Positions 8,026 to 48,786 are shown, numbered from the stretch's first letter. The stretch: 64,000 nucleotides of DNA from an uncultured Candidatus Saccharibacteria bacterium (GCA_964460855.1 CAYWQH010000008.1:5795-69794); one strand, 5' to 3'. The notes: generated by a model from the sequence alone, not told the origin. Numbers and translations are program-made.

Positions 8026-8189
8026 AACCTTCACAACGCGAACTACTTATCCGGCAAAGCCGTATATGTAGCTCGCTCTTGGCGCATCGCGGTGTTAGCT
8101 TCGTGCGCGGCTCGCTCTCCGTACATTAAAGTACGGTTCGCTCGCTGCTCCTCGCTGCCTAGCGCTGCATCCAAGTGTGAAGGTCTAGA
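8020..8189. repeat. ~170-bp element bounded by 14-bp terminal inverted repeats between ssb and rpsR
   Basis: tctagaaccttcaca (8020-) pairs with tgtgaaggtctaga (-8189). Inside are an internal hairpin ccgtacattaaagtacgg and repeated GCTCGCTC-type motifs. The left end overlaps the ssb stop codon. Confidence 0.6.
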
Positions 8190-8214
8190 CAAAGAAATTT
8201 AAGGAGACATAACA

Positions 8215-8418
8215 ATGGCTAAGATTTTTAAACATAAGACTGACGTAGCATATTTTGACTACAAGGACTTTAAGACCTTGCAGCGCTACATTAACCAGTT
8301 CGGCCAAATCGAACAGCGCAAAAAAACCGGTTTAACCGAAAGCAAGCAGCGCCAGCTGGCCCGCGCCATCAAGCGCGCCCGCCACATCGGCTTGCTGCCT
8401 TTTGTCGCCAGCAATTAA
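8215..8418 (+). CDS. rpsR: 30S ribosomal protein bS18
   Basis: YFDYKDFKTLQRYINQFGQIEQRKKTGLTESKQRQLARAIKRARHIGLLPF. Confidence 0.92.
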   Translation: MAKIFKHKTDVAYFDYKDFKTLQRYINQFGQIEQRKKTGLTESKQRQLARAIKRARHIGLLPFVASN

Positions 8419-16816: not shown

Positions 16817-17440
16817 TTGTTGCTCGCGAAACTCAAGAACCATAAACCATTAGGCATAATCGCCATTATCATCGCGGTAGTTTGTTTAGGCGCGGCGGTA
16901 TTCGGCGGCTATAAGTTGTTTAAAAACCACCGGGATAGCCAGGCCCGGAAAGTTAGCAATTCGTTTAAACAAGAAAACAGCCCTAACGCCCCGGCATCAG
17001 TTCAGGAACAAGCTTTAAACAAAGGCCAGATCCAAAGCACGGACGGGGGTGGCAACCTCGCCGTCGCCGAAGATTATTTAAGAGAAAAAAATTATGACAA
17101 AGCCGCCGAAGTAGTAAAACCGCTAGCCAACGACCCAACCAAGAAACGCCCTTATACCTGCGAAATAATGATAAAAGTTTATGTCGGCAAAGGGCAAACG
17201 TCCGAAAAAAACGCCGCCGCCAGTTACTGTGCCGGGCAGTGCCTGCAAGACGTATATCCTGGCAACGACGGCAAAGTTTACCAATACTACTGCGCCGCCA
17301 AAGTTTACAAGTTCGTGGGCGATACCGCTAACGCCAAAAAATACTTTAAAATGCTAGTTGACTATGTCGATGCCAACCCCGATTTAAAAAATAATGAATC
17401 AATACCGGAAATTTACGGCAATGCTAAAGCTAACTCATAA
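16817..17440 (+). CDS. Membrane-anchored TPR-like protein (module B, small partner)
   Basis: TTG start, one TM helix (IIAIIIAVVCLGAAVFGG), and helical repeat-like sequence (EDYLREKNYDKAAEVVKPLA). It overlaps the next gene by 20 nt. Confidence 0.55.
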   Translation: MLLAKLKNHKPLGIIAIIIAVVCLGAAVFGGYKLFKNHRDSQARKVSNSFKQENSPNAPASVQEQALNKGQIQSTDGGGNLAVAEDYLREKNYDKAAEVVKPLANDPTKKRPYTCEIMIKVYVGKGQTSEKNAAASYCAGQCLQDVYPGNDGKVYQYYCAAKVYKFVGDTANAKKYFKMLVDYVDANPDLKNNESIPEIYGNAKANS

Positions 17441-20400: not shown

Positions 20401-20507
20401 TTAGCTTAACGCCCGAAATTATCGTTGGTACGCCATTTACCTCCGGCGGATCCGGCTGTGGCAATATTTGCCTGGACAGCATAAGCAGCTTGCCGCCAAC
20501 CTTTTAG
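17421..20507 (+). CDS. Large secreted/surface protein (module B), paralog of 13720..16746
   Basis: The track ORF starts at 17394. The ATG at 17421 gives signal peptide MLKLTHNRLLIVIGIFVLAGALFAMLSGGKAAA|LN. The conserved C-terminal ~340 aa are shared with module A. Confidence 0.75.
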   Translation: MLKLTHNRLLIVIGIFVLAGALFAMLSGGKAAALNNTYPDTVHDTSFTGQPGNVNAQIIMSDVGQLNAPTSEVAVYTTDPKASFYIEGGANDCGNSDSGNVTVRWSFITDTKTSGWVVTKVVQSARQGAVGGANTDNSCLPYLVTLTLPPDSTGSKQIGDRWYYVWRVQTNLVASSGGLNAFHYLVNENLLPGAPAGIIAPFSLGVYNSDYANYGVNDQEVPLKNRGILACLPGAKLPPCTNSGVYRLKFAPPCNQAWDGRTQRAYLQWFDDDYGSPEEPPSSPIRLQLLDETTGALVPLTHYLPATPAGTATTIAADAGNQIPGAAYFFPQTEHKYTWIVSNVHPNNGWEFRQPFDGINHETNCQHISCTVTGPATVFPNSSYTAVVHVKNSGKGGLDTRFGVTDSATPLSQTNISPTIPPGGTGNIPIAMTSGTPPGSYTVGFTVYNHIPPLNMPGQVAAQCSLPIQIIPQPKPRFTAAPTATCTLVQFRAQYDPPNNNIPLKVHLQISDLSNGSVVVDNPNWVIPPPYSAAAEQFDPFGNLPGTATKIYPHKTYSVTLSLFDPSGAPVAGSDNTVNINGGQPCITPSCSISGNPEPGEVSQGISYKVDNNTDQTYNQPNYFFTFDVSPGPLPVDVPAGPPFPRSSNPVQPTLPPFGSAGLTVNATLNHILGGSLAVTPCRITASTRPYLKVFGDNAAAGGDWQNVSPGKCDKASSNINTYGRFTIPGVAGPPSGGYGSTGEFAALASGSIFGSLTDESPPMAAFYSGINRNIVVPPDASLNFSNTGPFAAGIFGGKFGQTSCFVDYFAGYTNAVKAGAPTITGDLPGNPANGNYYFNNGGSGPVNIGGLDLKEGQQITVYVNGDVTISGDITFNPGSGYSPKTNDWPYFKLVVMGNIYVKDSVTKLAGFYIAQPQNDGSAGRFYDCANGTTPVSLSSMTLNDCFNQLTINGALLAQRLAPGRTGVSSTLKASTLSDTDLANRFNKEPTEVFSLTPEIIVGTPFTSGGSGCGNICLDSISSLPPTF

Positions 20508-27549: not shown

Positions 27550-27578
27550 TTGCAAAAACGAAGCGATAGGGCTATTAT
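27550..27578 (+). promoter_or_regulatory. Candidate sigma70-type promoter of pilA
   Basis: -35 TTGCAA (27550-55), an exact 17-nt spacer, -10 TATTAT (27573-78), ~50 nt upstream of the pilA ATG. Confidence 0.45.
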
Positions 27579-27627
27579 TTTAGCCATAAGCATAATAAAA
27601 CCGTATAAGGGGGCAAAGGGCTTAACA

Positions 27628-28113
27628 ATGAAAAAAGAATATCAACAAAAGCGGGCAGCAGGCTTCACCATCATCGAAGTCCTGATCGTGTTGGCTATTG
27701 CCGGATTGATCCTTCTGATCGTCTTCCTGGCCGTTCCTGCTTTGCAGCGTAACCAAAGAAACACCGCTCGTAAAAACGATGTAGCACGCATCGGCGGGGC
27801 AGCAACCGAGTTCGTATCAAATAACAACGGTACAATGCCGGTAGGTACTGACAACACTACTATCAGCAACTCAGCAGGTACGTTGGCGCAGTATGACTTC
27901 AAAGCTAACCCAGCTAAGCTGATAATCGTTACCCAGGCAACTGCTGGAGCGACTACCATTACCGCCATAGATACAATGCGTATTGTAACTGCAGCGCAAT
28001 GTGGCGCATCCGGTGTAACATCAACAGGAAGCCCACGGCAATTGGCTATCCAGTACGCGGTTGAAAACTCAACCTCGGCTACTACTGGTACACCAGCTTG
28101 CGTAGCTCTGTAA
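27628..28113 (+). CDS. pilA: Major type IV pilin (prepilin)
   Basis: The internal ATG at 27628 with RBS aagggggcaaaggg gives MKKEYQQKRAAG|FTIIEVLIVLAIAGL. This is a class III signal peptide with G-1, F+1 and E+5. The track ORF starts earlier, at 27550. Confidence 0.85.
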   Translation: MKKEYQQKRAAGFTIIEVLIVLAIAGLILLIVFLAVPALQRNQRNTARKNDVARIGGAATEFVSNNNGTMPVGTDNTTISNSAGTLAQYDFKANPAKLIIVTQATAGATTITAIDTMRIVTAAQCGASGVTSTGSPRQLAIQYAVENSTSATTGTPACVAL

Positions 28114-28138
28114 TATAGCTTAAACAGAAAATCGATTT

Positions 28139-28168
28139 AGAGCGGCCAACCGGCCGCTCTTTATTTTT
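28139..28168 (+). terminator. Rho-independent terminator after pilA
   Basis: Stem agagcggcc / ggccgctct with a 4-nt loop (28139-28160), followed by ttatttttat. Confidence 0.75.
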
Positions 28169-28172
28169 ATGC

Positions 28173-29033
28173 TTGGCGCGTGCTAGGCTGGTGTCAATGG
28201 TTCTTTTTATTCTCTTAGTTTTCGGTATTGCTTTGGGTAGTTTTATAAATGCCCTGGTTTGGCGCCTGCATGAGCAAACTAAAAAATCGTCAAAAAGCCG
28301 TAAAAAAAGCCAGAATTTATCTATTATTAACGGCCGGTCAATGTGCCCGGACTGCAAACACCAGCTATCAGCCAAAGACCTGGTACCAGTATTTAGTTGG
28401 CTGTGGCTAAAGGGTAGGTGCCGTTATTGCCATAAGCCCATCTCAGCCGTTTACCCGGCAATTGAACTTCTAACCGGCATAATATTCGCCTTAAGCTATA
28501 TTTTCTGGCCAGTAGGGCTTAATACCGCCCATAACCAGGCCATTTTCATTACCTTTTTGCTTTGCGCCGTCGGCTTAATCGCCATGGCAATTTACGACAT
28601 CAAATGGATGCTGCTGCCGGACCGTATATTATTCCCAACGGCTTACATTGCCTGGGCTGGAACCTTGCTTGCCTTAATACTGGCCCATGGCAGCCGCTGG
28701 CATGAGCTTAAGCTGCTTCTTGCCGGTGTGGCCGTAGCCAGCGGCGTATTCTTAGCGTTGTATCTGTTATCAAGTGGCGAATGGATCGGCTTTGGCGATG
28801 TTAAGTTAGGTTTAGTTACCGGAGTATTATTGGCTACGCCGGCCAAAGCCTTGATGATGATCTTCGCCGCCTCGGTGTTGGGCTGCCTGGTAATAATCCC
28901 GGCCCTAATTGCCGGCAAAAGCAAACTTACCAGTAAAATACCGTTCGGCCCATATCTGATAGCCGCCACGTGGCTGGTGGTGCTGTTTGGCGATAAATTA
29001 ATTCATTGGTATACCGGTTACCTCCAACTCTAA
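28173..29033 (+). CDS. pilD: Prepilin peptidase (A24 family) PilD
   Basis: Polytopic membrane protein. N-terminal Cys motifs CPDC...CRYC and catalytic Asp motifs (IYDIKW.. and GFGDVKLG). Start is TTG 28173 or ATG 28197. Confidence 0.88.
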   Translation: MARARLVSMVLFILLVFGIALGSFINALVWRLHEQTKKSSKSRKKSQNLSIINGRSMCPDCKHQLSAKDLVPVFSWLWLKGRCRYCHKPISAVYPAIELLTGIIFALSYIFWPVGLNTAHNQAIFITFLLCAVGLIAMAIYDIKWMLLPDRILFPTAYIAWAGTLLALILAHGSRWHELKLLLAGVAVASGVFLALYLLSSGEWIGFGDVKLGLVTGVLLATPAKALMMIFAASVLGCLVIIPALIAGKSKLTSKIPFGPYLIAATWLVVLFGDKLIHWYTGYLQL

Positions 29034-29072
29034 GCTATTCCTTCTAAACTGCTTGTGCTATATACTTAAGGG

Positions 29073-29909
29073 ATGAAAATCGACAAGGGTGGATATACTA
29101 TTGTCGAAGTGCTGATAGTACTGGCCGTCAGTAGCTTGATATTCCTGTCTGCCGTATTGGCCGTCCAGGGGCGTTCGGCCCGCACCGGTTTCGATACCGG
29201 CATGCGCGAAATAGACTCCAAACTGCAGGATTGGCTCAACGATACTACTACCGGATATTACCCGGGCGCCGGCCAAAACGGCTGCCAAAGCAAGCCTCCT
29301 TCTAACCGGCCCAGCGTTGACCCTAAATACTCTAAACCAAGCGACCCTAATTATGTGCCCGAATGTGTATTTTTAGGCAAAGCTATCCACGCGCCCGCCG
29401 ACAGCCGTAAGATTTTTGCCTATACCGTTCTTGGCAACCGGCTATTTACTTCGTCCACAGGCTCCGTTTCTTTAGTAAACAGTATGCTCGAAGCCAAACC
29501 CGAACCAATCGCCGAACCGGTAAACCTAACCGACACTTACGAATTGCCGGAAGGCATTACCGTAAAAAGAATCGTTGACCCCAGCGGCAGCAAGTACATG
29601 GCCGGTTATTACATCAAATTTGACGGCGGCTCCAGCGGCGGCACCAACTCTACGGCGGTAGACACCTACCTTTATAACGCTGACGGTTTCGGCACCATGG
29701 AAAATGGCAAAGACGACAGTGTGGTTAAATGCATCGAAGATACGGGTTTACCATCAGGCGGAAAGTGCATTGGTGATGACGCGCCAGTACCGGCAAATAC
29801 CAAATGGACAATTTGCTTCGACTCTAACTCCGGCCGTACCGCCCAAATTAGCATTCTTAATAATGGTGTTTCGCTAACGACAAAATTGGATTATGATAAT
29901 GCTTGTTAG
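29073..29909 (+). CDS. Minor pilin / pseudopilin with prepilin-type N-terminus
   Basis: MKIDKGG|YTIVEVLIVLAVSSLIF, with G-1 and E+5. Confidence 0.7.
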   Translation: MKIDKGGYTIVEVLIVLAVSSLIFLSAVLAVQGRSARTGFDTGMREIDSKLQDWLNDTTTGYYPGAGQNGCQSKPPSNRPSVDPKYSKPSDPNYVPECVFLGKAIHAPADSRKIFAYTVLGNRLFTSSTGSVSLVNSMLEAKPEPIAEPVNLTDTYELPEGITVKRIVDPSGSKYMAGYYIKFDGGSSGGTNSTAVDTYLYNADGFGTMENGKDDSVVKCIEDTGLPSGGKCIGDDAPVPANTKWTICFDSNSGRTAQISILNNGVSLTTKLDYDNAC

Positions 29910-29912
29910 TAG

Positions 29913-30350
29913 GTGGTTAAAATGCTAAAACCGGTAAAGTTTAACTCCCAGCGCGGCGATACTATCATCGAAGTGCTGATCTGCCTGGCGATTTTAGGCC
30001 TTGTGCTGGGCAGCTCTTATTCTTTGGCCAACCGCAGTTTGCAGCAAACATTGCTGGCCAGGGAGCATACCGAAGTTATTAAGATCTTATCGGGGCAAAT
30101 AGAACGGTTTAAAGCCGACGCCGCTGACCGCCAAAATACCACTAAATATTGTTATAACCCCGGGCCGTTCGACAATAGCGACCCGTCCAAGTGTTTATTC
30201 AATAATTTATACCGGGTAAGTATAAAGTGGACCCCAGGCGATGCGACCGCTATACCGCCAGCCCCGGAAGTTTATACTTTCCAGGCCCAATGGGACTCGC
30301 TAGGCAGCGATAGTTCCACGCAACAGGAGCAGATATTTTACCGCCCATGA
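29913..30350 (+). CDS. Minor pilin with prepilin-type N-terminus
   Basis: ..NSQRG|DTIIEVLICLAILGLVLG, with E+5. Start is GTG 29913 or ATG 29922. Confidence 0.7.
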   Translation: MVKMLKPVKFNSQRGDTIIEVLICLAILGLVLGSSYSLANRSLQQTLLAREHTEVIKILSGQIERFKADAADRQNTTKYCYNPGPFDNSDPSKCLFNNLYRVSIKWTPGDATAIPPAPEVYTFQAQWDSLGSDSSTQQEQIFYRP

Positions 30351-32207: not shown

Positions 32208-33122
32208 TTAATCGGATTTTCGATGGAACCTGCTATGAACTTCTTTTAAGTGCGGGTCGGTTACATGCGTGTAAATCTGGGTGGTAGATATATTGCTATG
32301 GCCCAGCATCGATTGCACCGACCTTAGATCGGCGCCGTTCATTAAGAGGTCGGTAGCGAATGAGTGGCGCAGGGTATGGGGGCTGACATGTTTGGTAATT
32401 CCGGCCAGCAGGGCATAACGGCCAACCATCCGTTGTACGCTGCGGGCAGTTAGCCGGTGGTAATTGCCCGATGTATCGACTTTCTTATTGCCGGCGTATC
32501 TAATAAACAGTGGTTTAGTATTATCTTCGCGCTTGGCCAAGTATAGCTCAATCCATTTGGCGGCATCCGGGCTGATAAATATCGGCCGGTCTTTTTGGCC
32601 TTTGCCGCGCACCATAAATTCGCGCCTTTTCAAATTAATGTGTTCACGGTCCAAACCAACTAGTTCAGACACCCGTAACCCACTGCTAAATAATAGTTCG
32701 AGTATGGCCCGGTCGCGCATGCCCGGTACCGTGTCTACTTTTGGTTGTTCAAAAAGCCGGGCCAGTTCATCCTGGTTCAAAAAAGTCACTTGGGTCCGTG
32801 TAGTCCGCGCCAATTCGATCTTATCCGGGGCCAGGGCAGGAATATTGGACTTCGCACAATATCGTAAAAAACTCCTTAAGGCTATCAAATGGTAATTTTG
32901 TGTCGTCTTCGATAGCTCATCGCTGGTGTTGGTTCCCAACCGGTTTAGCCACAGCCGCCATTTCCTTATAAGTTCGGCGTCTATATCCTTAACTTTAATG
33001 TCGCCGGCAAAGTCAGACAACCTTATCAGGTAGTGGTGGTAGTTCTCGATGGTTTTTTGTGAGCGGTTCTGTTCGATCTCCATGTATTCTAAAAATCGGC
33101 TAACCGCGGCTTCGTAATCCAT
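32208..33122 (-). CDS. Tyrosine recombinase XerC/XerD family
   Basis: 304 aa. N-terminal SAM-like domain and C-terminal catalytic motifs RDRAILELLFSSGLRVSEL, HTLRHSFATDLL, LGHSNISTTQIYTHV. Confidence 0.85.
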   Translation of the reverse strand: MDYEAAVSRFLEYMEIEQNRSQKTIENYHHYLIRLSDFAGDIKVKDIDAELIRKWRLWLNRLGTNTSDELSKTTQNYHLIALRSFLRYCAKSNIPALAPDKIELARTTRTQVTFLNQDELARLFEQPKVDTVPGMRDRAILELLFSSGLRVSELVGLDREHINLKRREFMVRGKGQKDRPIFISPDAAKWIELYLAKREDNTKPLFIRYAGNKKVDTSGNYHRLTARSVQRMVGRYALLAGITKHVSPHTLRHSFATDLLMNGADLRSVQSMLGHSNISTTQIYTHVTDPHLKEVHSRFHRKSD

Positions 33123-33239: not shown

Positions 33240-33749
33240 ATGGAACGAACACTAATTATCCTCAAACCCGATGCCGTACAACGCGGCATCGTTGGCGAAG
33301 TACTCAGCCGCTTCGAAAAAGCCGGCCTTAAAATTGTAGCCATGAAAATGGTCGCTCCGGACAAAGAGCATTTTCACGCTCACTATGAAGGCATTAGCAA
33401 ATTGATCAGCCGGTGGGGCGAAGACATTTACAATATAACGTTGTCGCATATGACCGAATCGCCGGTAATCGCGGCCGTACTAGAGGGAATTGACAGTGTA
33501 GAGCATGTCCGAAAGATGGTTGGAACCACAGACCCTAAAGAATCAGCTCCGGGCACTATCAGGGGTGACTATACTCATGTGCCTCGGGCAGATACTAACA
33601 AGCGGGGCAGCACGCTTCCGAATATAATCCACGCTTCAGGGAATGCCGAAGAAGCGGCTGAAGAGATAAAATTATGGTTTGGGGATAATGAAATTTACGG
33701 GTACCAAACGGCCCACGAAGAGACTGTAAAAGGCCGCATTCCTAGTTAA
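33240..33749 (+). CDS. ndk: Nucleoside-diphosphate kinase
   Basis: MERTLIILKPDAVQRGIVGEVLSRFEKAGLKIVAMK and active-site NIIHASG. Confidence 0.9.
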   Translation: MERTLIILKPDAVQRGIVGEVLSRFEKAGLKIVAMKMVAPDKEHFHAHYEGISKLISRWGEDIYNITLSHMTESPVIAAVLEGIDSVEHVRKMVGTTDPKESAPGTIRGDYTHVPRADTNKRGSTLPNIIHASGNAEEAAEEIKLWFGDNEIYGYQTAHEETVKGRIPS

Positions 33750-33770
33750 GAAGTAATATTATCTGTAAAA

Positions 33771-33876
33771 GCCAGTTCGGGTCCTTCGACTCATTGTCTT
33801 TCGGCTATTCGATCTGGATCATTCGACTCGGCTTGGTTTACCATGAGCGAGGCTCGAGTAATCGAGCCGAGTCGAA
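33771..33876. repeat. tRNA-trailing structured repeat, copy a
   Basis: gccagttcgggtccttcgac...ggatcattcgactcg...ggtttaccatgagcga...gagtcgaatggtg abuts the 3' end of minus-strand tRNA-Arg. The blocks are shared with 36746-36850. Confidence 0.7.
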
Positions 33877-33951
33877 TGGTGCCCCCACCACGATTCGAAC
33901 GTAGAGCTTCTCCTTAGGACGGAGCTGTTTTATCCATTGAACTATGGGGGC
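33877..33951 (-). tRNA. tRNA-Arg (anticodon CCT), CCA encoded
   Basis: The reverse complement gcccccatagttcaatggataaaacagctccgtcctaaggagaagctctacgttcgaatcgtggtgggggcacca folds as a cloverleaf. Acceptor gccccca/tgggggc, T-loop ttcgaat, anticodon loop gtCCTaa. Confidence 0.85.
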
Positions 33952-34027
33952 CTGAACAGGTATACTTTACCATATTTTTATAGCTCTACCTCTGGACTGG
34001 CAAGCATAAAAGCATTACCCTAATATC

Positions 34028-34543
34028 ATGGCAACAAAGTACTTTAAAGAACAGTTTGACGACGAAGACGTGCTTTTAGTATTCCGTAAACACCCGGTGG
34101 TTATGCGGCGCGGCCTGGTATACGCGATGTTCGGCTTATTATTAGGGGTTATTCCAGCCTTGGTAAAACCCGAGTATACCTATTTCTTTGGCGGGCTAGG
34201 CGCCGGTTTTCTATTAGCCATGATAATCTTTTTTCCTTATTGGGTGCGTTGGCACTTCAGCGTATATATAATGACCAACAAGCGCCTAATACAACAAACC
34301 AGGAGCCTTTTACAGGTTAGCGTAGTCGATATAAGCCTCGACCAAATCCAAATGGTAAATTACCAGGTATCAGGTTTGCAGGAAACTTTGCTGGGATTTG
34401 GTACAATAATGGTGCAAACTTACGTGGGCGATCTTGTAATTCGCGATGTCCATCATCCAGCGAAACTGCAAAAACAAATGATCCATATATTAAGGGACCT
34501 GGGTATCCACGCCTCAACCAAACCGGGGCTGGCCAGCGAATAA
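34028..34543 (+). CDS. Membrane protein with bacterial PH-like (YdbS/T-type) architecture
   Basis: 171 aa with two TM helices after FRKHPVVMRRGL, then a soluble beta-rich C-terminus. Assignment is by architecture only. Confidence 0.5.
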   Translation: MATKYFKEQFDDEDVLLVFRKHPVVMRRGLVYAMFGLLLGVIPALVKPEYTYFFGGLGAGFLLAMIIFFPYWVRWHFSVYIMTNKRLIQQTRSLLQVSVVDISLDQIQMVNYQVSGLQETLLGFGTIMVQTYVGDLVIRDVHHPAKLQKQMIHILRDLGIHASTKPGLASE

Positions 34544-34549
34544 ATTGCT

Positions 34550-35614
34550 ATGAAAAAACATATTTATAAAGTACTGCCTAAAAAAACCAAAGCCCATAAA
34601 GTGGCTGCGGCTGACGACGCCGAACCGGAAGTTGTCCCGCGCATTACCAACGAAACGGTCGCTGTCCACCGCGAAGAAGTGTTAAAGGGCGCCCGCAAGT
34701 ATATTTATCCGCTGCAGCACTCCAAGCACCGCATAGTTTTAATTACTACCGGTATCGTAATCGTTACTCTTCTTTCGTTCATGGCATATTGCGTCGTAGC
34801 CCTATACAAGGTTCAAAGCAGCAATGCCTTCCTTTACCGGGTCACCCAGGTTATCCCGTTTCCGGTAGCCCGCAGCGGTAGCAGCCTGGTTTATTACGAG
34901 AACTATCTATTCGAATTGCGCCATTATACCCACTATTACGAGCGTCAACTTCAGCAAGACTTAAACAGCGAAACCGGTAAACCGCAGTTGGTCCAGTACA
35001 AGCAAAAAGCCCTGCAGCAAGTTATAGACGATGCCTATGTAAAAAAGTTAGCCGCCCAAAATGGCGTTACGGTCAGCGATAAAGAAGTGCAGGAGCGTAT
35101 ACGCCTGGTGCGCGACCAAAACCGCCTGGGCAGCAACAACAAGGTATTCGAAGACGTACTGAAAGACTTCTGGGGCTGGTCGGTTAAAGACTTCGAGCGC
35201 AGCTTAAAGCAGGAAATATTAGCCGAAAAGGTCATAGCTAAGCTGGATACGGCAACCGACGCCAAGGCGGTTGCCGCCCAGGCCCAGATTAAAAATGGCG
35301 CTAACTTTAGTGACTTGGCAAAGAAAGTATCGGAAGACCCAACCTCAAAATCTACGGGTGGTGACTACGGCTTTTTGATCGATAAATCCAGCCGCGACGT
35401 CGCGCCACAGGTGGTAGACGAGCTATATAAGCTTAAAAAAGGCGAAACCTCCGACGTTATAAATACCGGCACCACCCTCGAAATCGTTAAAGTAATTGAT
35501 ATCAAGGATAACAAAATCCAGGCCTCGCATATTAGCTTCCAGCTCCAGGATATTTCCAAATATATTAACGACCTCAAAGAAAAACAAAAGACGACAACCT
35601 ATATCAAAGTGTGA
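34550..35614 (+). CDS. Membrane-anchored parvulin-type peptidyl-prolyl isomerase (PrsA/SurA-like)
   Basis: Single TM helix, then a SurA_N-like helical region, then the PpiC signature FSDLAKKVSEDPTSKSTGGDYGFL. Confidence 0.75.
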   Translation: MKKHIYKVLPKKTKAHKVAAADDAEPEVVPRITNETVAVHREEVLKGARKYIYPLQHSKHRIVLITTGIVIVTLLSFMAYCVVALYKVQSSNAFLYRVTQVIPFPVARSGSSLVYYENYLFELRHYTHYYERQLQQDLNSETGKPQLVQYKQKALQQVIDDAYVKKLAAQNGVTVSDKEVQERIRLVRDQNRLGSNNKVFEDVLKDFWGWSVKDFERSLKQEILAEKVIAKLDTATDAKAVAAQAQIKNGANFSDLAKKVSEDPTSKSTGGDYGFLIDKSSRDVAPQVVDELYKLKKGETSDVINTGTTLEIVKVIDIKDNKIQASHISFQLQDISKYINDLKEKQKTTTYIKV

Positions 35615-35667
35615 CAGGTTGCTAATTTAACTCCTTACTGCTAGTATTTAACCTGTTATTTGGCTAT

Positions 35668-35744
35668 GGGCTCGTGGTGTAGAGGCCTAACATGCCTCCC
35701 TGTCACGGAGGAGATCGCCGGTTCGAATCCGGTCGGGCCCGCCA
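35668..35744 (+). tRNA. tRNA-Asp (anticodon GTC), CCA encoded
   Basis: gggctcgtggtgtagaggcctaacatgcctccctGTCacggaggagatcgccggttcgaatccggtcgggcccgcca, with anticodon stem cctcc/ggagg. Confidence 0.9.
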
Positions 35745-35753
35745 AGTATGTTT

Positions 35754-35778
35754 CCCGCTTTGGTAGCGGGCTTTTTTA
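35754..35778 (+). terminator. Rho-independent terminator after tRNA-Asp
   Basis: cccgct-ttggt-agcggg followed by cttttttatt. Confidence 0.7.
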
Positions 35779-35918
35779 TTCAGGTCCGAATAATCAAGCA
35801 CCGCAATGCGTTATCCGGCCAGGCAAAGCTTATCACTAGACCAAACGTAAAAATTATGTTATAGTAACTTAGCTCAAGAACCCCTACAACCGATTGAGGT
35901 GAAACGATTAAGAGCAAG

Positions 35919-36440
35919 TTGGCCACCATCCGCGAAGCTCTTGGTTCGAACCGTGACGTCATCATGTTCGAACCTAAGCCGAGCCTGCAGCTGCCGAACC
36001 CCAACGGGTACTGGTTGCAGACCATCGACATCCGGGTCGCGCCCGACTACGGACTGTTCACGGTCAATGAGCTGCAGGCCTTCATGATGGGCCTGGTGAA
36101 GCTCGACCCAACATCGAAGGTAGACTTCCGAAGCAGGGGTGAATTCCTCCGCATCGGACAGCTGCACTTCGACGAGTCCATCGGTACCGAAACCGTGACG
36201 GGCAGCCGGACAATCCACATCACCGACCCCGACGTGCCGCTCCCGGACTTCTTCGAGAACGGCAAGACGGTCTTCGACGCCAGCAGGACTAACGACCTGA
36301 CGCGCCGAACATCCATCTGGGTCTATCCGGACCGCGACCACGCGGTGCGGGCGATGAAAGGAGAGGACGTATACAGCACCAGCAGCTTCCCTCGCATCAG
36401 GGGCAGCTACCGCCGGGCTAACATCGAACTGGGCCGCTAG
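35919..36440 (+). CDS. Orphan protein encoded in a high-GC, high-GC3 islet (probable foreign gene)
   Basis: 173-aa ORF. By eye, about 85% of third codon positions in this frame are G/C. The competing antisense ORF (35874..36503) is Ala/Arg/Gly/Val-rich, as expected for a shadow frame. The start is uncertain (TTG 35919 or ATG 35964). Confidence 0.6.
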   Translation: MATIREALGSNRDVIMFEPKPSLQLPNPNGYWLQTIDIRVAPDYGLFTVNELQAFMMGLVKLDPTSKVDFRSRGEFLRIGQLHFDESIGTETVTGSRTIHITDPDVPLPDFFENGKTVFDASRTNDLTRRTSIWVYPDRDHAVRAMKGEDVYSTSSFPRIRGSYRRANIELGR

Positions 36441-36447
36441 GGCACCC

Positions 36448-36473
36448 GTAAGGGCCGCCCCGGCGGCCCTTAC
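36448..36473 (+). terminator. GC-rich hairpin without U-tract downstream of the high-GC ORF
   Basis: gtaagggccgcc / ggcggcccttac is a 12-nt inverted repeat lying 8 nt after the stop codon. It is followed by taatttat, with no T-run. Confidence 0.45.
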
Positions 36474-36491
36474 TAATTTATAACCATTTTT

Positions 36492-36850
36492 CCAGAGGCG
36501 CACAGGCGAGGCAATAAGGATTATCCAGAGGCTCAGATTTGATTTCTAAGTAGGAAAAATAAGTACCAATATTATAATTTTCCGCTAACGCAGCAGTTCG
36601 GACCCTTCGACGCGCCGCCTCCCGGCGGCTTGCTCAGGATCATTTGACTCGATTAGCTTACAATTCATGACTCTCCAGAGGCGCACAGGCGGGATAAGCT
36701 TGGTATTTCTTTCGAGGAGCGCCAAAATTATAAAACCGCTAACACGCCAGTACGGGTCCTTCGACGCGAAGCCTTCCGGCTTCTTGCTCAGGATCATTCG
36801 ACTCGCTTAGTCCATGCATGGTTTACCATGAGCGAACGAAGTGAGTCGAA
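36492..36850. repeat. Imperfect tandem duplication (two units, ~183 and ~176 bp), each ending in a tRNA-trailing repeat core
   Basis: The exact 17-mer ccagaggcgcacaggcg occurs at 36492 and 36675. Shared blocks in the same order are ccgctaac, t[ta]cgg[ga][tc]ccttcgacgcg, and cttgctcaggatcatt[tc]gactcg. Confidence 0.8.
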
Positions 36851-36925
36851 TGGTGCGGGTGGCGGGAGTCGAACCCGCGTTTCAGCCTTGGGAAGGCTAC
36901 ATAATAGCCGTTATAAGACACCCGC
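36851..36925 (-). tRNA. tRNA-Gly (anticodon CCC), CCA encoded
   Basis: Reverse complement gcgggtgtcttataacggctattatgtagccttCCCaaggctgaaacgcgggttcgactcccgccacccgcacca. Acceptor gcgggtg/cacccgc, T-arm gcggg-ttcgact-cccgc. Confidence 0.8.
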
Positions 36926-36930
36926 ATTAC

Positions 36931-37006
36931 TGGAGCCACCAAGCGGGGTCGAACCGCTGACCTACGCTTTACGAAAGCGCCGCTCTACCAACTGAGCTAT
37001 GGTGGC
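36931..37006 (-). tRNA. tRNA-Thr (anticodon CGT), discriminator U, CCA encoded
   Basis: Reverse complement gccaccatagctcagttggtagagcggcgctttCGTaaagcgtaggtcagcggttcgaccccgcttggtggctcca forms a canonical cloverleaf. Confidence 0.9.
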
Positions 37007-37045
37007 ATTTTTGAACTAAAATCGAGTATAACAGAGCAGGTTGCT

Positions 37046-37486
37046 TTAGCTAAGCCTTCTGGCTTGCCTTTGTAAAACCAGTAAATAGGCGCCCAGTTCT
37101 TTCTGGCCGACCGATTTCAAGTAAAGTCTCAACTCACTGCGCAGCTGGCCTTCAATTGAGCTCACCAGCCTCAATCCTTTTGGCGTAATGACGGCGTATA
37201 TAATACGGCTGTCCTCCTCGTCATTTTGGCGACGGACATAATCGTTGCGCTCCAGCTCATTTAATAGCCTGGTGGCAATCGGCAGTTTAATATTCAGCAC
37301 CCGGGCAATTTGGGTTGGGGTTAGGCTTTGGGCCTCATTTAAAAAGCCCAAGAGCTTCCATTCCGAAAGGTTAATATGAAAGATCTTTAGTTGGTCCGTC
37401 ATGTACTTTTCGAAGGCCCGGTGGGCTTGGGACTCCAGCGCAGCCATAGCATATGAGGTCAATGAATTGGCCAAAGACTTAGTCAT
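37046..37486 (-). CDS. MarR-family transcriptional regulator
   Basis: 146 aa with wHTH LSEWKLLGFLNEAQSLTPTQIARVLNIKLPIATRLLNELERNDYVRRQNDEEDSRI. Confidence 0.85.
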   Translation of the reverse strand: MTKSLANSLTSYAMAALESQAHRAFEKYMTDQLKIFHINLSEWKLLGFLNEAQSLTPTQIARVLNIKLPIATRLLNELERNDYVRRQNDEEDSRIIYAVITPKGLRLVSSIEGQLRSELRLYLKSVGQKELGAYLLVLQRQARRLS

Positions 37487-37610
37487 GGCTTAATATTACG
37501 CCCGCTAAAAATAACTAGCAATGATAATAAAATTATATCTCTAAAACCAGTTGAAAATTTTTACTAAAACATGTCATTTAACGGATAAAAGAGTACAATA
37601 GAGCAAAAGC

Positions 37611-37967
37611 ATGAACGTACCGAGAAAATATTTACACAATCGGTTAATTTTGGGGCTGCTAACCATTTTAGCGGTCCTGCTGGTTATTGGCGTGGCGTCG
37701 GTTTTTTTGCGTTTTGACGCTTCTAAAAATCCAACGACTATCAGCACATACCGGCCTAATGTTTCCGGCAGCGGCCTGGTTAGCGGCAAGGCAATTGATA
37801 TATATGAGCTGGCAATTTTTATGATCGGCATCACGGCAGCTAACATCGTTTTAAGTATTAAGGTTTTTAATGTCCGCCATTATTTATCGGTATTCATCCT
37901 GGCTTCAACGGCTCTGCTGCTGGTTATTAGCATCATTGTTACAAATTCATTAATTTCTTTGCAGTAA
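37611..37967 (+). CDS. Small polytopic membrane protein
   Basis: 118 aa with about 3 TM helices. It is divergent from marR and lies immediately upstream of the GT2 gene. Confidence 0.55.
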   Translation: MNVPRKYLHNRLILGLLTILAVLLVIGVASVFLRFDASKNPTTISTYRPNVSGSGLVSGKAIDIYELAIFMIGITAANIVLSIKVFNVRHYLSVFILASTALLLVISIIVTNSLISLQ

Positions 37968-37971
37968 ACCC

Positions 37972-39558
37972 ATGAAATCCATCGAAATTCCGACTAAAGC
38001 CGAGAAGGACTGGCGCTACCGCCTGTTCGAAATTCTGCCCGGCACTTTAAGTTGGACAATCTTATTCTTGCCGCTGATTCTAAGCCAAATCAGCACCCGG
38101 ATAATCGCATACTTCGTTATCGCCTATCTGCTGCTGTGGTTCGTTAAGGCAGTGGGGTTGTCCTACCGGGCAATCCAGGGCGCCAGGGTATTGGATTTTC
38201 ACCGCAAACTGGACTGGTCGCGCCTCAATAATGACCTCGAAAGCTTGCATACGACGCTGCGCAAACCAGACTGGCACACCCACAACATCGCCCGCGTCAG
38301 CAATTTCGAGCCTGAAAGGATTATTAAACCAAGCGAAGTAATCCATATCGCCATGGTAGCTAACTATTCTGAAAAGCTCGAAGTAATGGAACCAACTATC
38401 CAATCGATACTGGCCAGCGATTATGACCCCAAGAAGATAATTTTGGTAATTGCCTACGAAGAGCGCGGCGGGCCAGAGATTGAAAAGCAGGACAATTATT
38501 TGATTAAGAAATATGGCAATAAATTCCTGTACGCCGCGGCTTATAAGCACCCCCGCGATACGCCAGGCGAGGTAAAAGGCAAGGGCGGCAACGTAACATA
38601 TGCCGGCCGACAAATCGAGAAATGGCTTAAAAAAGCTAAAATCGACCCGGCTAAAGTCCTGATTACCACTCTGGATTCAGATAACCGGCCCGATAAAAAA
38701 TACTTCGCGGCCCTTACGTACACTTTTTGCGTTACGGAATATCCAAAATATGTTTCCTACCAGCCGATTCCCATGTATCTAAATAATATCTGGGACGCCC
38801 CGGCGCCGATGAGGGTGATTGCTACCGGTAACTCGTTTTGGAATATCGTTTTGGCGCTCAGGCCCCACATGCTTCGCAATTTTTCGGCCCATGCCCAGCC
38901 AATGAACGCGCTAATCGAAACGGACTACTGGAGTGTCCGTACTATCGTAGAAGACGGCCACCAGTTCTGGCGTACTTATTTCCGGTTTGACGGCCGCCAC
39001 GATGTTTACCCCATATACGTGCCGATATACCAGGACGCCGTTCTGGCTACCGGGTACGTTCGGACTTTAAAGGCCCAGTTTATACAACTTCGCCGCTGGG
39101 CATATGGCGCGTCAGATATACCTTATGTTTTTTGCACCGGCTTTTTTAAGAAGAATAAAGTGCCCAAAATAGATTTAACGATGAAGTTTTTGCGCTTACT
39201 GGAAGGCCACTTGAGCTGGGCTACAGCGCCGTTAGTGCTGCTCATAGCGGCCTATATACCGCTTTTGATCCATCCCCGCAATTACGAAGCTAATCAGCTG
39301 CCGTATATAGCCAGCAGCCTGCAGCGGGTAGCGATGGCCGGTATTTTGGTAACTTTGTACTTGAGTTTACGCTTTTTGCCGCCTAAACCGGTACGTTACC
39401 GCCGCCACCGCACTTTATTTATGGTTATCCAGTGGATTTATCTGCCTATAACCACTATCGTTTATAACTCGTTTTCCGCTCTTTACTCCCAAACCAGGTT
39501 GATGCTGGGCAAATACCTGGAAAAATTCGACGTAACCGAAAAAGCCGTTAAGCGCTAA
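37972..39558 (+). CDS. Membrane-embedded processive family-2 glycosyltransferase (cellulose/chitin-synthase-like)
   Basis: N- and C-terminal TM bundles. DxD-like TLDSDN, and the Q(Q/R)xRW signature FIQLRRWAYGASD. Confidence 0.7.
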   Translation: MKSIEIPTKAEKDWRYRLFEILPGTLSWTILFLPLILSQISTRIIAYFVIAYLLLWFVKAVGLSYRAIQGARVLDFHRKLDWSRLNNDLESLHTTLRKPDWHTHNIARVSNFEPERIIKPSEVIHIAMVANYSEKLEVMEPTIQSILASDYDPKKIILVIAYEERGGPEIEKQDNYLIKKYGNKFLYAAAYKHPRDTPGEVKGKGGNVTYAGRQIEKWLKKAKIDPAKVLITTLDSDNRPDKKYFAALTYTFCVTEYPKYVSYQPIPMYLNNIWDAPAPMRVIATGNSFWNIVLALRPHMLRNFSAHAQPMNALIETDYWSVRTIVEDGHQFWRTYFRFDGRHDVYPIYVPIYQDAVLATGYVRTLKAQFIQLRRWAYGASDIPYVFCTGFFKKNKVPKIDLTMKFLRLLEGHLSWATAPLVLLIAAYIPLLIHPRNYEANQLPYIASSLQRVAMAGILVTLYLSLRFLPPKPVRYRRHRTLFMVIQWIYLPITTIVYNSFSALYSQTRLMLGKYLEKFDVTEKAVKR

Positions 39559-39982
39559 GTTTTATCTGGCGGTCCAGAAGTTCTTCGTGGGCCAATACAT
39601 ATCTTAAATGTGCCGCGCGGTTATATTGCTTTAATACTTTTGCAGCCGTTATGGCAATCTGTTGGGAAGTTACAGATGCTTGTTTACCAATAAGGCATTT
39701 ATTTACTACCGTATGAGCTAACTCAGAAGCCGCCAGGCAGCTTTTAACGTCTTTTTTGGCCAATGACCCAAGTAAACTGGCTTCCAGTTTTAAGCGGCTG
39801 AAAGGGGCTAACTGGTTGTCTTGGCCGGCAACTAAATAACTGGCCTGGGAATCTATGGCTTCAACAGAGGTAAATACGGCCTGGCAAACCAGACAGGCCC
39901 GGCGTCGCCAAACGCTGTTGCTCCGGCTTTGCTTCCGGGAGTTGGTTACCTTTGTGCGGCCCGCACAATATGCACATACCAT
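39548..39982 (-). CDS. nrdR: Transcriptional repressor NrdR (zinc ribbon + ATP-cone)
   Basis: MVCAYCAGRTKVTNSRKQSRSNSVWRRRACLVCQAVFTSVE (CxxC...CxxC). An ATP-cone-like remainder (APFSRLKLEASLLGSL ... AAHLRYVLAHEEL) is alignable to E. coli NrdR from memory. Confidence 0.8.
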   Translation of the reverse strand: MVCAYCAGRTKVTNSRKQSRSNSVWRRRACLVCQAVFTSVEAIDSQASYLVAGQDNQLAPFSRLKLEASLLGSLAKKDVKSCLAASELAHTVVNKCLIGKQASVTSQQIAITAAKVLKQYNRAAHLRYVLAHEELLDRQIKLSA

Positions 39983-39999
39983 GTCAATATATTGACATG
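39980..39999. promoter_or_regulatory. Perfect 20-bp palindrome with NrdR-box-like core overlapping the nrdR start codon
   Basis: catgtCAATATATTGacatg. The core CAATATATTG matches the published NrdR-box core CwAtATaTwG. The cat at 39980-82 is the complement of the nrdR ATG. Confidence 0.5.
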
Positions 40000-40014
40000 A
40001 CGCTAAACAAAAAG

Positions 40015-40044
40015 CTAGTGGATAAAAATTTCGGAAAGTGGATA
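40015..40044 (-). promoter_or_regulatory. Two inverted-orientation copies of TATCCACT(AG) / TTATCCACT, DnaA-box-like, in the nrdR upstream region
   Basis: ctagtggata (40015-40024) is the reverse complement of tatccactag. agtggata (40037-40044) is a second copy. Both read TTATCCACT on the minus strand, with starts ~20-22 bp apart. Confidence 0.4.
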
Positions 40045-40050
40045 ACCGGC

Positions 40051-40082
40051 AACATAAAAGTCCCGCAACAGAGCTGCGGGAC
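40051..40082 (-). terminator. Rho-independent terminator (minus strand) after the small ORF
   Basis: The minus strand reads gtcccgca-gctctgt-tgcgggac followed by cttttatgtt. It begins 18 nt after the stop of 40100..40210. Confidence 0.65.
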
Positions 40083-40099
40083 CTTATGTAAACTTCTTT

Positions 40100-40210
40100 C
40101 TAAGCTGCTTGCCTTAGCCGCTTGATGCGGCCGGGGCGAGACTTGGAAGAGGCAACCTCTTCATAAAACAACTTGAAAGTAGCAAGTGAACTGCCTTTTG
40201 TAGTACTCAC
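40100..40210 (-). CDS. Unannotated 36-aa basic small protein (below the ORF-track size cutoff)
   Basis: GTG start with SD gaggt 5 nt upstream. Translation is MSTTKGSSLATFKLFYEEVASSKSRPGRIKRLRQAA. It is followed by its own intrinsic terminator. No family recognised. Confidence 0.4.
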   Translation of the reverse strand: MSTTKGSSLATFKLFYEEVASSKSRPGRIKRLRQAA

Positions 40211-40285
40211 TTATTACCTCACGTTAACCCGGTTATGTTAACAGAAAATAGTAAAAAAGTCAAGGTTACTGTTACAATACTATGA

Positions 40286-41365
40286 ATGTCCGACCCCTGT
40301 TATGAATTGATTAAACAGCTTAACGGCCACCGTAGTGGCCGCCTTCGCACCCGCGCCGGAACGGTTAATACGCCGGTATTTATGCCGGTGGGTACCCGGG
40401 GCGCGGTAAAAAGCCTGGACCCCGAGTACCTTAGCCAAGTTAAATCGCAGATTATCCTGGGTAACACCTATCATTTACACCTGCAGCCTGGCGAAGCGAC
40501 TATCCGGAAGCTAGGCGGGCTACACCGCTTTATGAATTGGGCGGGCCCGATATTAACCGACTCAGGCGGCTTCCAGGTATTTTCGCTGGCTAATATCCGG
40601 ACTATTACCGAAGAAGGTGTAACCTTTAAAGACCCGATATCCGGCGCTAAAATTCTAATTACTCCCGAGATATCGGTGCAAATCCAAATTAAATTGGATT
40701 CAGATATTATTATGGCCTTTGACGATTTGACGGGCTTAGGCGAAAAAGATAAGGCCCGTACTAAAGAGGCAGTCGAAAGGACTCACCGCTGGCTGGAGCG
40801 GTCCGTCGCCGAATTTAAAAGGTTAACCAAAAAAACAAACAAAGCACAGCGGCCGTTGATATTTGGAATAGCCCAGGGCGGTTTAGATATTGGTTTACGC
40901 CAAAAAAGCATAGAATACGTGGCGCAGCAGCCAGTAGACGGCCTGGCGATTGGCGGCTTATCGGTAGGTGAGACCCGCGGCGAAATGCATCATGTTTTAA
41001 GGGAGCTTGCCCCCTTATATCCGAATCATTTACCAAGGTACCTAATGGGCGTAGGTGAGCCCGCTGATATGAGGTTTGCTATGGAGCACGGTATAGATAT
41101 GATGGATTGCGTTCTGCCTACCCGTAATGCCCGCCACGCTACAGCCTGGATAACAGGTGACAAGAAGATCCATTTAACTAATGCCAAGTATATTTCTGAT
41201 AAAAGCCCGGTTGATAAAGCCTGCGATTGCCAAACTTGCGTAAGAGGGTTTAGCAAAGGGTACTTGAGGCACTTATTTAAGGTGAATGATCCGCTGGCCG
41301 GCAGTCTGGTGTCGGTACACAATATCAGGTATTTGAATAGGATAACGGAAGAGTATAGGGGCTAG
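40286..41365 (+). CDS. tgt: Queuine tRNA-ribosyltransferase (tRNA-guanine transglycosylase)
   Basis: TPVFMPVGTRGAVKSL, ILTDSGGFQVFSL, LAIGGLSVGE, the Zn site CDCQTC, and VHNIRYL. Confidence 0.9.
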   Translation: MSDPCYELIKQLNGHRSGRLRTRAGTVNTPVFMPVGTRGAVKSLDPEYLSQVKSQIILGNTYHLHLQPGEATIRKLGGLHRFMNWAGPILTDSGGFQVFSLANIRTITEEGVTFKDPISGAKILITPEISVQIQIKLDSDIIMAFDDLTGLGEKDKARTKEAVERTHRWLERSVAEFKRLTKKTNKAQRPLIFGIAQGGLDIGLRQKSIEYVAQQPVDGLAIGGLSVGETRGEMHHVLRELAPLYPNHLPRYLMGVGEPADMRFAMEHGIDMMDCVLPTRNARHATAWITGDKKIHLTNAKYISDKSPVDKACDCQTCVRGFSKGYLRHLFKVNDPLAGSLVSVHNIRYLNRITEEYRG

Positions 41366-41400
41366 TTCGGGCCCTTCGACTCGCAGCCTTCCGGCTGCTC
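41361..41400. repeat. tRNA-trailing structured repeat, partial copy d
   Basis: gctagttcgggcccttcgactcgcagccttccggctgctc has the same 5' core as copies a-c. Its hairpin stem is gcagcc/ggctgc. It starts at the tgt stop codon. Confidence 0.6.
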
Positions 41401-41629
41401 AAATTAAATAGAATTAGCCAGTTTTGGGCGAACCATAAATTTGACCCACGAGTATTTTGACTGACGTAAAAATCTCGCGGGCCCGCCTCGCGGCGCTCGC
41501 CTTTCGCCCCTGTTAGGGGCTCAAACTCGCGCAACGCTGCGGCTGTTCAAATCCCACGCGAGCCAAGCAGTTGGCTCGCTTCCGCGCCCAGCCAAGAAAA
41601 TAGCCCACTTTATGAGTGAGCTATTTTCT

Positions 41630-41706
41630 TGGTGGGCGCGGAGGGATTTGAACCCCCGACTTTCACAACGTCAATGTGACGCTCTAGCCAACTGAGCTAC
41701 GCGCCC
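41630..41706 (-). tRNA. tRNA-Val (anticodon GAC), CCA encoded
   Basis: Reverse complement gggcgcgtagctcagttggctagagcgtcacattGACgttgtgaaagtcgggggttcaaatccctccgcgcccacca. Confidence 0.9.
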
Positions 41707-41839
41707 ATAAAGGCGGGCTAGAGCTATACTAAACCACCATAAGTTAAATCGCAAATAACTCATATGCGGTATATACCAAATAGACCACAAAAACCAATAA
41801 AAAACTACTAGCATTTTAATACTAGTCTATATATACTCA

Positions 41840-48431: not shown

Positions 48432-48784
48432 GCGCAGGATTATTGGCTGATCGCCCCGCTTTAGCGGGGAGGAAAGTCCGGGCAGCTAAGGGCAGGACAG
48501 TTGCTAACGGCAACCGGGGGTAACCCTAGGGAAAGTGCCACAGAAACAATACAACCAGGTAGAAATACCGGGAAATGGTGAAACGAGTGGGGTAAAAGCC
48601 CACAGTTCCTCACGGTGACGTCAGGAAAAGGTAAACCCTGTCTGCTGCAAGGGATGGACATGCCGCTTTAAAACGGATGGTGCGCCCGCCAAGTCCATCA
48701 AATATCCGCTTGAGCTACATGGCAACATGAGGTCTAGATAGATGATTGGCTAAAACAGAACCCGGCTTACGGATAATCCCGCAC
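48432..48784 (+). ncRNA. rnpB: RNase P RNA (bacterial type A)
   Basis: CR-I GAGGAAAGTCCGGGC (48468-), GGTAAACCC, and CR-V ACAGAACCCGGCTTA (48755-). P1 pairs gcaggattat with ataatcccgc. End coordinates are accurate to about 5 nt. Confidence 0.9.
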
Positions 48785-48786
48785 AT

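Follow-up and report, generated by a model that had tools for sequence, protein, structure and literature searches.

A stretch of 64,000 nucleotides from an uncultured Candidatus Saccharibacteria bacterium (GCA_964460855.1, CAYWQH010000008.1:5795-69794; hereafter the window) contains four copies of a short repeat, all of them in the trailers of tRNA genes. On balance, this repeat probably represents a family of structured non-coding insertion elements in Patescibacteria, a non-autonomous cassette that sits behind the CCA of a tRNA and serves as its 3' trailer. The element is ~ 105-130 nt long, composite and hairpin-forming. It is known from five full-length copies, two in the window (w1 and w3) and one each at the loci L005, L008 and L028/L030, and from two partial copies, both in the window (w2 and w4). 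In all five full copies, the left flank is CACCA and the element starts at the first base after CCA. These copies follow five different tRNA species in at least three organisms, always in the orientation of the tRNA. Because the element runs in this orientation from the first base after CCA, it would become the 3' trailer of the tRNA transcript.

Comparison with relatives allows filled sites to be set against empty ones. Relatives were found via the parvulin-type isomerase (SurA-like protein) of the window, whose homologues in Saccharimonadales-like genomes share 64-70% identity, and their contigs conserve the order integrase, ndk, tRNA-Arg(cct), two genes and tRNA-Asp. In two of them, L015 and L016, the ndk stop lies 6 nt from the CCA of tRNA-Arg(cct), the 3' half of the tRNA is the same as in the window, and no element is present. 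L016 likewise has no element behind tRNA-Gly(ccc), which ends in CACCCGCACCA and continues with TCCACAGAAAAAAC (CACCA followed by TCCACAG). L027, which is related to L005, shares the tRNA-Arg(gcg) end with it; there, the plain hairpin GCCUUCGC-GCA-GCGAAGGC takes the place of the element. Finally, the element is present in L028 and L030 but missing from L029, even though L028 and L029 encode identical GAPDH proteins. Four sites that are filled in one genome are therefore empty in a relative. Since orthologous sites are empty and near-identical strains differ, the copies point at insertion rather than at an inherited trailer, and an insertional, tRNA-end-specific nature of the element is likely. 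A first interpretation made from the sequence alone (the sequence-only reading) had offered a module for trailer processing or termination, a miniature mobile element targeting tRNA 3' ends and a new non-coding RNA motif; the second is the best supported of the three, by the empty sites and by the position of all full copies after CCA.

On the tRNA strand, the element reads from CCA onward as block A, a variable insert, block B, UGAGC(A/G)A, hairpin H, block C and a tail. Block A (UUCGACUC) follows CCA directly, the insert holds in three copies a block X (UCGCUCAUGGUAAAC, also written CGCUCAUGGUAAAC), and block B is GAGUCGAAUGAUCC. Block C, the last block (GAGUCGAAGGACCC), has the form (G/C)AGUCGAAGGACCC and is followed in the window copies by a tail GAACUGGCUUUU.... 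The conserved blocks are 100% identical across organisms, with variable segments in between. Past block C, another 10-35 nt are conserved (GAACTGGCTTTT...), with a far terminus that is not an obvious inverted repeat. The tRNA-proximal TTCGACTC recurs in inverted form, as GAGTCGAA, in blocks B and C, and the motif GAGTCGAAKGAYCC is found three times per element, once inverted and twice direct.

Folding of this strand brings blocks A and B together in a stem, P1 (CAUUCGACUC/GAGUCGAAUG), of 10-14 bp with a copy-specific extension; C75 and A76 of the tRNA take part in the first two pairs of the stem. A second stem, P2, formed by AUCC after block B and GGAC in block C, encloses H and contains the conserved single strands UGAGCRA and GAGUCGAA. 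Hairpin H comprises up to 6 bp of variable sequence with a GNRA loop; it is well formed in w2, w3, w4 and L008 and degenerate in w1 (4 of 6 pairs), L005 and L028. The stems gccgcc/ggcggc, gaagcc/ggcttc and gcagcc/ggctgc with T(C/T)CC loops, on which the sequence-only reading had relied, are present as described except for the degenerate hairpin of the first copy, and in tRNA sense their loops read as the GNRA tetraloops GGAA, GGGA and GAAA. Block X is complementary to UGAGCGA, and this is kept in L005 even though X there lies downstream of block C and not inside P1, so that a long-range pairing between the two may be possible. A designed two-state switch between A:B and A:C pairing was considered and rejected, as the two states differ in energy by anything between + 3 and - 19 kcal/mol and the copies show no common trend.

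The structure was assessed on seven aligned sequences over 20 pairs (P1, P2 and H). In this alignment, where two rows are partial and their P1 cells are filler, 85.4% of the cells are paired, compared with 72.9% in shuffles, and none of 500 shuffles reaches the observed value. Pairs changed on both sides number 9 versus 3.1 expected, slid controls leave only 23-44% of the cells paired, and folding z-scores are about - 4. At the level of single pairs, L028 replaces one C-G pair of P1 by U-A and compensates two pairs of P2 (GAUCC/GGACC to GACAC/GUGCC), while w2 and w3 differ at two pairs of H, both compensated. Compensatory change is thus shown in P1, P2 and H in a small sample of few and related copies; within the same bounds, the double-sided stem substitutions that had first suggested covariation are real. 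DNA-level correction of palindromes could mimic such structural selection.

The GNRA loops, the co-oriented neighbours at L005, L008 and L028 and a promoter-like site upstream of the tRNA behind which w1 lies all favour the tRNA strand as the functional one. Were the plus strand the functional one, it would provide the convergent genes ndk and tgt with a 3'-end, terminator or insulator structure, or else act in antisense against the 3' end of the tRNA. This assignment could draw on w1, which starts 22 nt past the ndk stop, on w4, which lies on the tgt stop, and on the antisense strand, which is at least as stably folded in three of five copies (e.g., - 54.4 vs - 44.5 kcal/mol for w1) and turns the recurrent A.C opposition of P2 into G.U. 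However, no convergent gene is present at L005, L008 or L028, where the neighbours run with the tRNA; GNRA loops occur only on the tRNA strand, w2 shows canonical pairing only there, and neither strand has a U tract. We consider a function of the plus strand very improbable, and the proximity to the ndk and tgt stops, real for w1 and w4 as previously pointed out, incidental.

All four window copies had been recognized from the sequence at the places where we find them, and their blocks greatly exceed chance expectation. The 19-mer AGTTCGGGTCCTTCGACGC, allowing up to 3 mismatches, occurs four times versus 0.00 expected and nowhere else in the 64 kb; the 17-mer CAGGATCATTCGACTCG occurs three times versus 0.04 expected. 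The 16-mer GGTTTACCATGAGCGA has two exact occurrences and is not significant alone, as 9 of 100 shuffles gave at least two. Some boundaries had to be revised: the first copy extends ~ 10 nt further, to 33761, and only the first and third copies are full repeats, the second and fourth being partial. The block GAGTCGAATGGTG indeed abuts the 3' ends of tRNA-Arg and tRNA-Gly, but its last five nucleotides, TGGTG, are C72-A73-C74-C75-A76 of the tRNA itself, the element beginning only after CCA.

Copy w1 (33761-33876, minus strand) adjoins the CCA of tRNA-Arg(cct) on the 3' side. This tRNA (33877-33951, minus strand) was called by ARAGORN and Rfam, and the promoter-like site upstream of it spans 34003-33974. 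In plus coordinates, w1 is made up of the tail (33761-33778), block C GGGTCCTTCGACTC (33779-33792), the degenerate H (33793-33808) with a GAAA loop in tRNA sense, the P2/B tail GGAT (33816-33819), the 3' strand of P1 (33820-33833), block X (33835-33850), an extra palindrome GGCTCGAGTAATCGAGCC (33851-33868) and the 5' strand of P1 (33865-33878), which includes A76 and C75. Its tail, TGGCTTTTACAGAT, is similar to that of the L028 copy, and its covariance-model scores are 121 bits (R1) and 101 bits (R2). Logan contigs of the window's own species are short and broken inside the element or inside tRNAs. Four independent ones, from four sequencing runs (L001-L004), all stop at the same base, 33850, inside the P1 loop of w1 and just before the palindrome GGCTCGAGTAATCGAGCC, which suggests a repeat boundary or a variable site with population heterogeneity at the palindrome.

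The second full copy, w3 (36746-36850, minus strand), adjoins the CCA of tRNA-Gly(ccc) on the 3' side. Its parts are block C (36754-36767), H (36768-36783; GAAGCC GGAA GGCUUC in tRNA sense), the P2/B tail (36791-36794), the 3' strand of P1 (36795-36804), block X (36820-36835) and the 5' strand of P1 (36843-36852), and it scores 109 bits (R1) and 108 bits (R2). On the minus strand, tRNA-Thr(cgt) (36931-37006) and tRNA-Gly(ccc) (36851-36925) form one predicted transcription unit with tRNA-Gly last, which would run into w3 and then into w2. The latter (36592-36651, minus strand; 40 bits with R1, 77 bits with R2) is a partial copy consisting of B-UGAGC-H-C, with H as GCCGCC GGGA GGCGGC, downstream of w3 within a tandem duplication of ~ 154-182 nt; the two copies are 83% identical, and degenerate X-like sequence beyond w2 reaches ~ 36686. 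A decayed tRNA-Gly 3' end between w3 and w2, comparable to the arrangement in L028, was considered and set aside since the alignment is ambiguous.

The remnant w4 (41361-41400, minus strand; 31 bits with R1, 43 bits with R2) retains UGAGC-H-C-tail, with H as GCAGCC GGAA GGCUGC, and is missing its tRNA-proximal end. Its far end overlaps the stop codon of tgt (TAG, 41363-41365), a gene whose product has a TGT Pfam match. A distance of 230 nt separates w4 from tRNA-Val(gac) (41630-41706, minus strand), whose unit including the trailer spans 41592-41706. In between, ~ 200 nt at 41420-41630 are GC-rich and apparently structured, with a T-arm-like GGCTGTTCAAATCCCACGCGAGCCA on the plus strand; this interval has no ARAGORN tRNA call and no Rfam match, and could be a decayed tRNA fragment or another RNA. 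The window holds six tRNA genes, on which ARAGORN and Rfam agree, and most of them have no element.

Outside the window, an exact-pattern scan of 185,579 species genomes returned a single true match, in the Patescibacteria metagenome-assembled genome L005, and the same kind of scan over Joint Genome Institute metagenomes returned one, L008; the remaining matches of both scans are chance occurrences in coding DNA. At L005, tRNA-Arg(gcg) belongs to a co-oriented tRNA cluster, and the copy begins right behind its CCA. At L008, it is tRNA-Ile(gat) whose CCA the copy adjoins, within an rRNA operon spacer region that has the order tRNA-Ile, element, open reading frame (ORF), tRNA-Ala, 23S with a group I intron, and 5S. 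The ORF between the two tRNAs, directly after the element, encodes ~ 170 aa, and the 23S rRNA gene (3034-8415), 5.4 kb long, holds one or more group I introns, including that at 5114-5333. Support for co-transcription of element and tRNA comes from context, a co-oriented tRNA cluster and an rRNA operon spacer, and from the GNRA loops in tRNA sense.

A covariance model built from four copies additionally recovered a diverged, 57-bit copy in L028 and L030, loci reached via GAPDH homologues of L005, where the element follows a duplicated tRNA-Lys 3' end. Covariance-model searches of ~ 220 kb of related loci gave no further copies. Four exact patterns run against viral contigs yielded only chance matches in coding DNA or an unrelated phage palindrome, and BLAST of the element against phage and plasmid collections returned nothing. 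None of 10 candidate spurious ORFs over the element was found in the protein collection, and a small conserved ORF was ruled out since the reading frames, compared by eye, differ between copies.

The L028 copy occupies an unusual setting. Downstream of tRNA-Lys(ctt), L028 11292-11900 (also L030) is a tandem array with a 75-nt period, each unit made up of 60 nt of hairpin trailer plus the terminal 15 nt of tRNA-Lys (CCACCTGACCCACCA). Six downstream copies of the tRNA-Lys end are present in L028/L030 as compared to one in L029 (6590-6700), and the element lies within the array with CCCACCA (7 nt) on both flanks. Such a pattern hints at scars or miniatures of integrative elements that recombine at tRNA 3' ends, either as attachment (att) arms or by tandem accretion in the manner of cis-mobilizable elements (CIMEs). 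The threefold GAGTCGAAKGAYCC motifs, inverted and direct, would then be arm-type sites of the recombinase, and the strain difference in array length fits as well. The window copies, too, lie in a rearranged region, where tRNA-Thr/Gly is inverted with respect to L016 and a GC-rich foreign island occupies 35900-36500. Yet when the 1.5 kb downstream of each tRNA were searched by script for a repeat of its final 9 nt, none appeared except in L028-L030, so that the duplicate of the tRNA end is absent at w1, w3, L005 and L008. CACCA is all that the five tRNAs have in common, a short sequence for the core of a recombinase site, and no integrase is linked to any copy: the only integrase-family gene, XerC/D-like (32208-33122), is syntenic in relatives without the element. 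Plain tandem duplication spanning the tRNA end and its trailer can also explain the array. An origin of the copies as integrative scars is, in our estimate, unlikely.

The island itself follows directly after tRNA-Asp and stands out by its GC content (0.57-0.63 vs ~ 0.47 around it). It contains an ORF (35919-36440) without a Pfam match and ends in a strong hairpin (36448-36473), and it looks like foreign DNA inserted beside a tRNA. In L016, different genes fill this interval and the tRNA-Thr/Gly pair has the opposite orientation.

A hairpin resting on CCA is not restricted to the element. Among 23 distinct CCA-ending tRNA genes at the examined loci, 11 have a stem of 8 bp or more with its 5' strand beginning between C74 and + 2, in nine of them exactly at C75. 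Four of ~ 15 trailers without the element have such a stem, against a background of 3.8% per position (binomial tail ~ 0.002). In the window, the trailer of tRNA-Val (41592-41629, minus strand) forms one with 18 pairs counted from C74 (CCAAGAAAAUAGC.../...GCUAUUUUCUUGG) and is not an element copy. The tRNA-Ala(ggc) trailer hairpin (L005 3483-3500) is nearly identical in L025 and L027, though GAPDH is only ~ 65% identical, and further cases are the trailers of tRNA-Ala(tgc) (L008 1254-1292) and tRNA-Arg(gcg) (L027 near 3390-3413). No U tract follows these hairpins, which are therefore not classical terminators. As they also occur in unrelated trailers, the element copies a native trailer design: hairpins that rest on the CA of CCA seem to belong to the native trailers, and P1 is one instance of them. 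CCA-anchored hairpins may be a general signal at tRNA 3' ends in Patescibacteria, and we infer a role in 3'-end processing.

This generality, together with the conservation of the tRNA-Ala(ggc) trailer, could also be read in favour of a functional trailer RNA, acting as processing signal or as source of a small RNA, that is selected in place and was spread by recombination or gene conversion rather than by transposition. Identical blocks around variable segments, compensatory changes even in the partial w2, and the retained complementarity of block X to UGAGCGA where X has moved (L005) agree with selection of this kind. The empty orthologous sites and the presence/absence differences between strains do not, the tRNA flanks have no homology able to drive conversion between different tRNA genes, and most tRNAs of the window manage without the element. 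Spread by conversion of a module selected in place is hence decidedly unlikely, while an RNA-level role of the inserted element is plausible.

As for the identity of that RNA, a search of the whole window with Rfam 15 at gathering score gives no match for the element, only for the tRNAs beside it, and nothing emerges at E-values up to 10 over 33600-41800 or in the L028 copy, tRNAs again excepted, which bears out the proposal of a new non-coding RNA motif. The constant start at + 1 after CCA would suit an RNA that sets the 3' end of the tRNA through a cut after A76, whether by cleaving itself or by guiding a nuclease, and the conserved unpaired UGAGC and GAGUCGAA around a variable GNRA hairpin give the element a superficially ribozyme-like appearance. 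However, no Rfam ribozyme matches even at the permissive E-value. The hammerhead core is not formed (CUGAGCA instead of CUGAUGA, no three-way junction), a nested fold resembling that of hepatitis delta virus (HDV) fits only two of five copies, and H is absent or degenerate in three of seven copies. Such an activity is scarcely credible. Hammerhead, HDV-like and k-turn cores were all rejected, as key nucleotides or topology do not fit and Rfam is silent. A mimic of a tRNA or T-arm was dismissed as well, since TTCGACTC resembles a T loop but has no closing stem, and no promoter or terminator was found within the element.

The insertion element can be compared with several known systems. Correia elements, miniature inverted-repeat transposable elements (MITEs) of Neisseria, are non-coding and non-autonomous, measure ~ 100-150 bp, carry terminal inverted sequences that fold into a long hairpin when co-transcribed, and differ in presence between strains; they insert at TA with duplication and are scattered intergenically in hundreds of copies. 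The element described here shares their size range, non-coding nature, hairpins and strain polymorphism. In contrast, each of its full copies lies after a tRNA CCA in a single orientation, few copies are known, and the window sites show no duplication. With respect to MITEs in general, presence and absence at orthologous sites was observed, but target-site duplication at each copy was not.

Integrase att sites and CIME-type accretion target tRNA 3' ends, a choice of target that the element shares, along with the L028 arrays containing tRNA end copies; its length of about a hundred bases, the missing integrase, the absence of a duplicated tRNA end in four of five full copies and the use of five tRNAs set it apart. 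The 3'ETS-leuZ RNA of Escherichia coli is a structured tRNA 3' external transcribed spacer (ETS), single-copy and vertically inherited. Both are structured 3' trailers that could be released by tRNA processing, the element differing as a repeat family with empty orthologous sites. Palindrome-associated transposable elements (PATEs) derived from IS200/IS605 insert 3' of a fixed short sequence, in one orientation and without target duplication, and have hairpins near their ends. The CACCA before all five full copies and the lack of duplication at w1 and w3 are PATE-like. Unlike PATE end hairpins, however, P1 and H do not resemble each other and H is variable (degenerate in w1, L005 and L028). 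Moreover, CACCA alone cannot explain the exclusive association with tRNAs, and no TnpA or TnpB gene is found in the window.

Repetitive extragenic palindromic (REP) sequences and the bacterial interspersed mosaic elements (BIMEs) built from them are mobilized by REP-associated tyrosine transposases (RAYTs) (PMC2817692). Like these, the element is a short structured extragenic repeat at the 3' ends of transcription units, with compensatory stems and with direct and inverted arrangements. REPs, however, are 20-40 nt long with a GTAG-type head, very numerous and not bound to tRNAs, whereas the element is composite, 105-130 nt long and has no visible RAYT: no RAYT-like ORF lies near any copy, the Pfam scan having covered the ORFs at 32-44 kb only. 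All in all, the element is MITE- or REP-like with an unusually precise target and fits the defining features of no single known family tested, and no known transposition or integration scheme fits all copies.

How such a cassette might move can be outlined conditionally. It would spread non-autonomously, mobilized in trans by an enzyme encoded away from the copies, either inserting 3' of ...CACCA with no duplication of the target, or recombining site-specifically with the end of the tRNA. It might be tolerated, or even useful, because P1 reproduces the native CCA-anchored hairpin, and the hairpin could be a signal that directs the 3'-end processing, the ending or the insulation of the tRNA transcript. 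A more specific proposal, tentative and unlikely in our view, is an undescribed mobile cassette specific to the tRNA 3' end, which recognizes the finished end of a tRNA gene, goes in precisely behind A76 with no target duplication and provides a working CCA-anchored trailer, either a processing signal or a trailer-derived regulatory RNA with alternative folds A:B and A:C, possibly via an RNA or single-strand intermediate.

Several observations weigh against a non-autonomous insertion family. Target-site duplication is inconsistent, being absent at w1 and w3 by comparison with the empty sites and present as the CCCACCA repeat in L028. Genes for a transposase, an integrase or a reverse transcriptase are absent from the surroundings of every copy, the Xer-like gene excepted. 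A related autonomous element sharing the ends and encoding a transposase was likewise not found in the window, at the other loci examined or in the viral, phage and plasmid collections. The total remains at five full and two partial copies, and the single true match in each exact-pattern scan means either that the family is rare or that the patterns are too strict. The complete identity of blocks across organisms could reflect functional constraint in place rather than recent spread. Lastly, no copy has a U-tract terminator on the minus strand, P1 being followed by AUCCUGAGC. With no U tract after P1 or P2, a termination role is therefore without support. The proposed trailer processing or termination module accordingly holds only as far as context indicates co-transcription with the tRNA.

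Elsewhere in the window, a bacterial type A RNase P RNA lies at 48435-48785 (243 bits). Two ORFs of ~ 1000 aa each (13720-16746 and 17394-20507) share repeated DNA (73% over 81 nt), and a gene run at 27550-30350 has pilin-like N-terminal repeats of the GYTIVEVLIVLA type. Together with an A24 prepilin peptidase in syntenic relatives, the repeat ORFs and pilin-like genes suggest a type IV pilus locus.

Patescibacteria have tiny genomes in which few repeats have been described, and to our knowledge, no small bacterial repeat targets the tRNA end itself. If the element is mobile, its precise landing after the CCA of unrelated tRNA genes would suggest a targeting mechanism by which the end of the tRNA is itself recognized. 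Should it act as RNA, its likeness to native trailers, in which a hairpin pairs with the CA of CCA, would represent a shared and testable signal for tRNA 3' maturation or for transcript ending. In practical terms, the element breaks short-read assemblies at tRNA loci and marks rearrangement hot spots, which gives it a use in strain typing and in the quality assessment of metagenome-assembled genomes.

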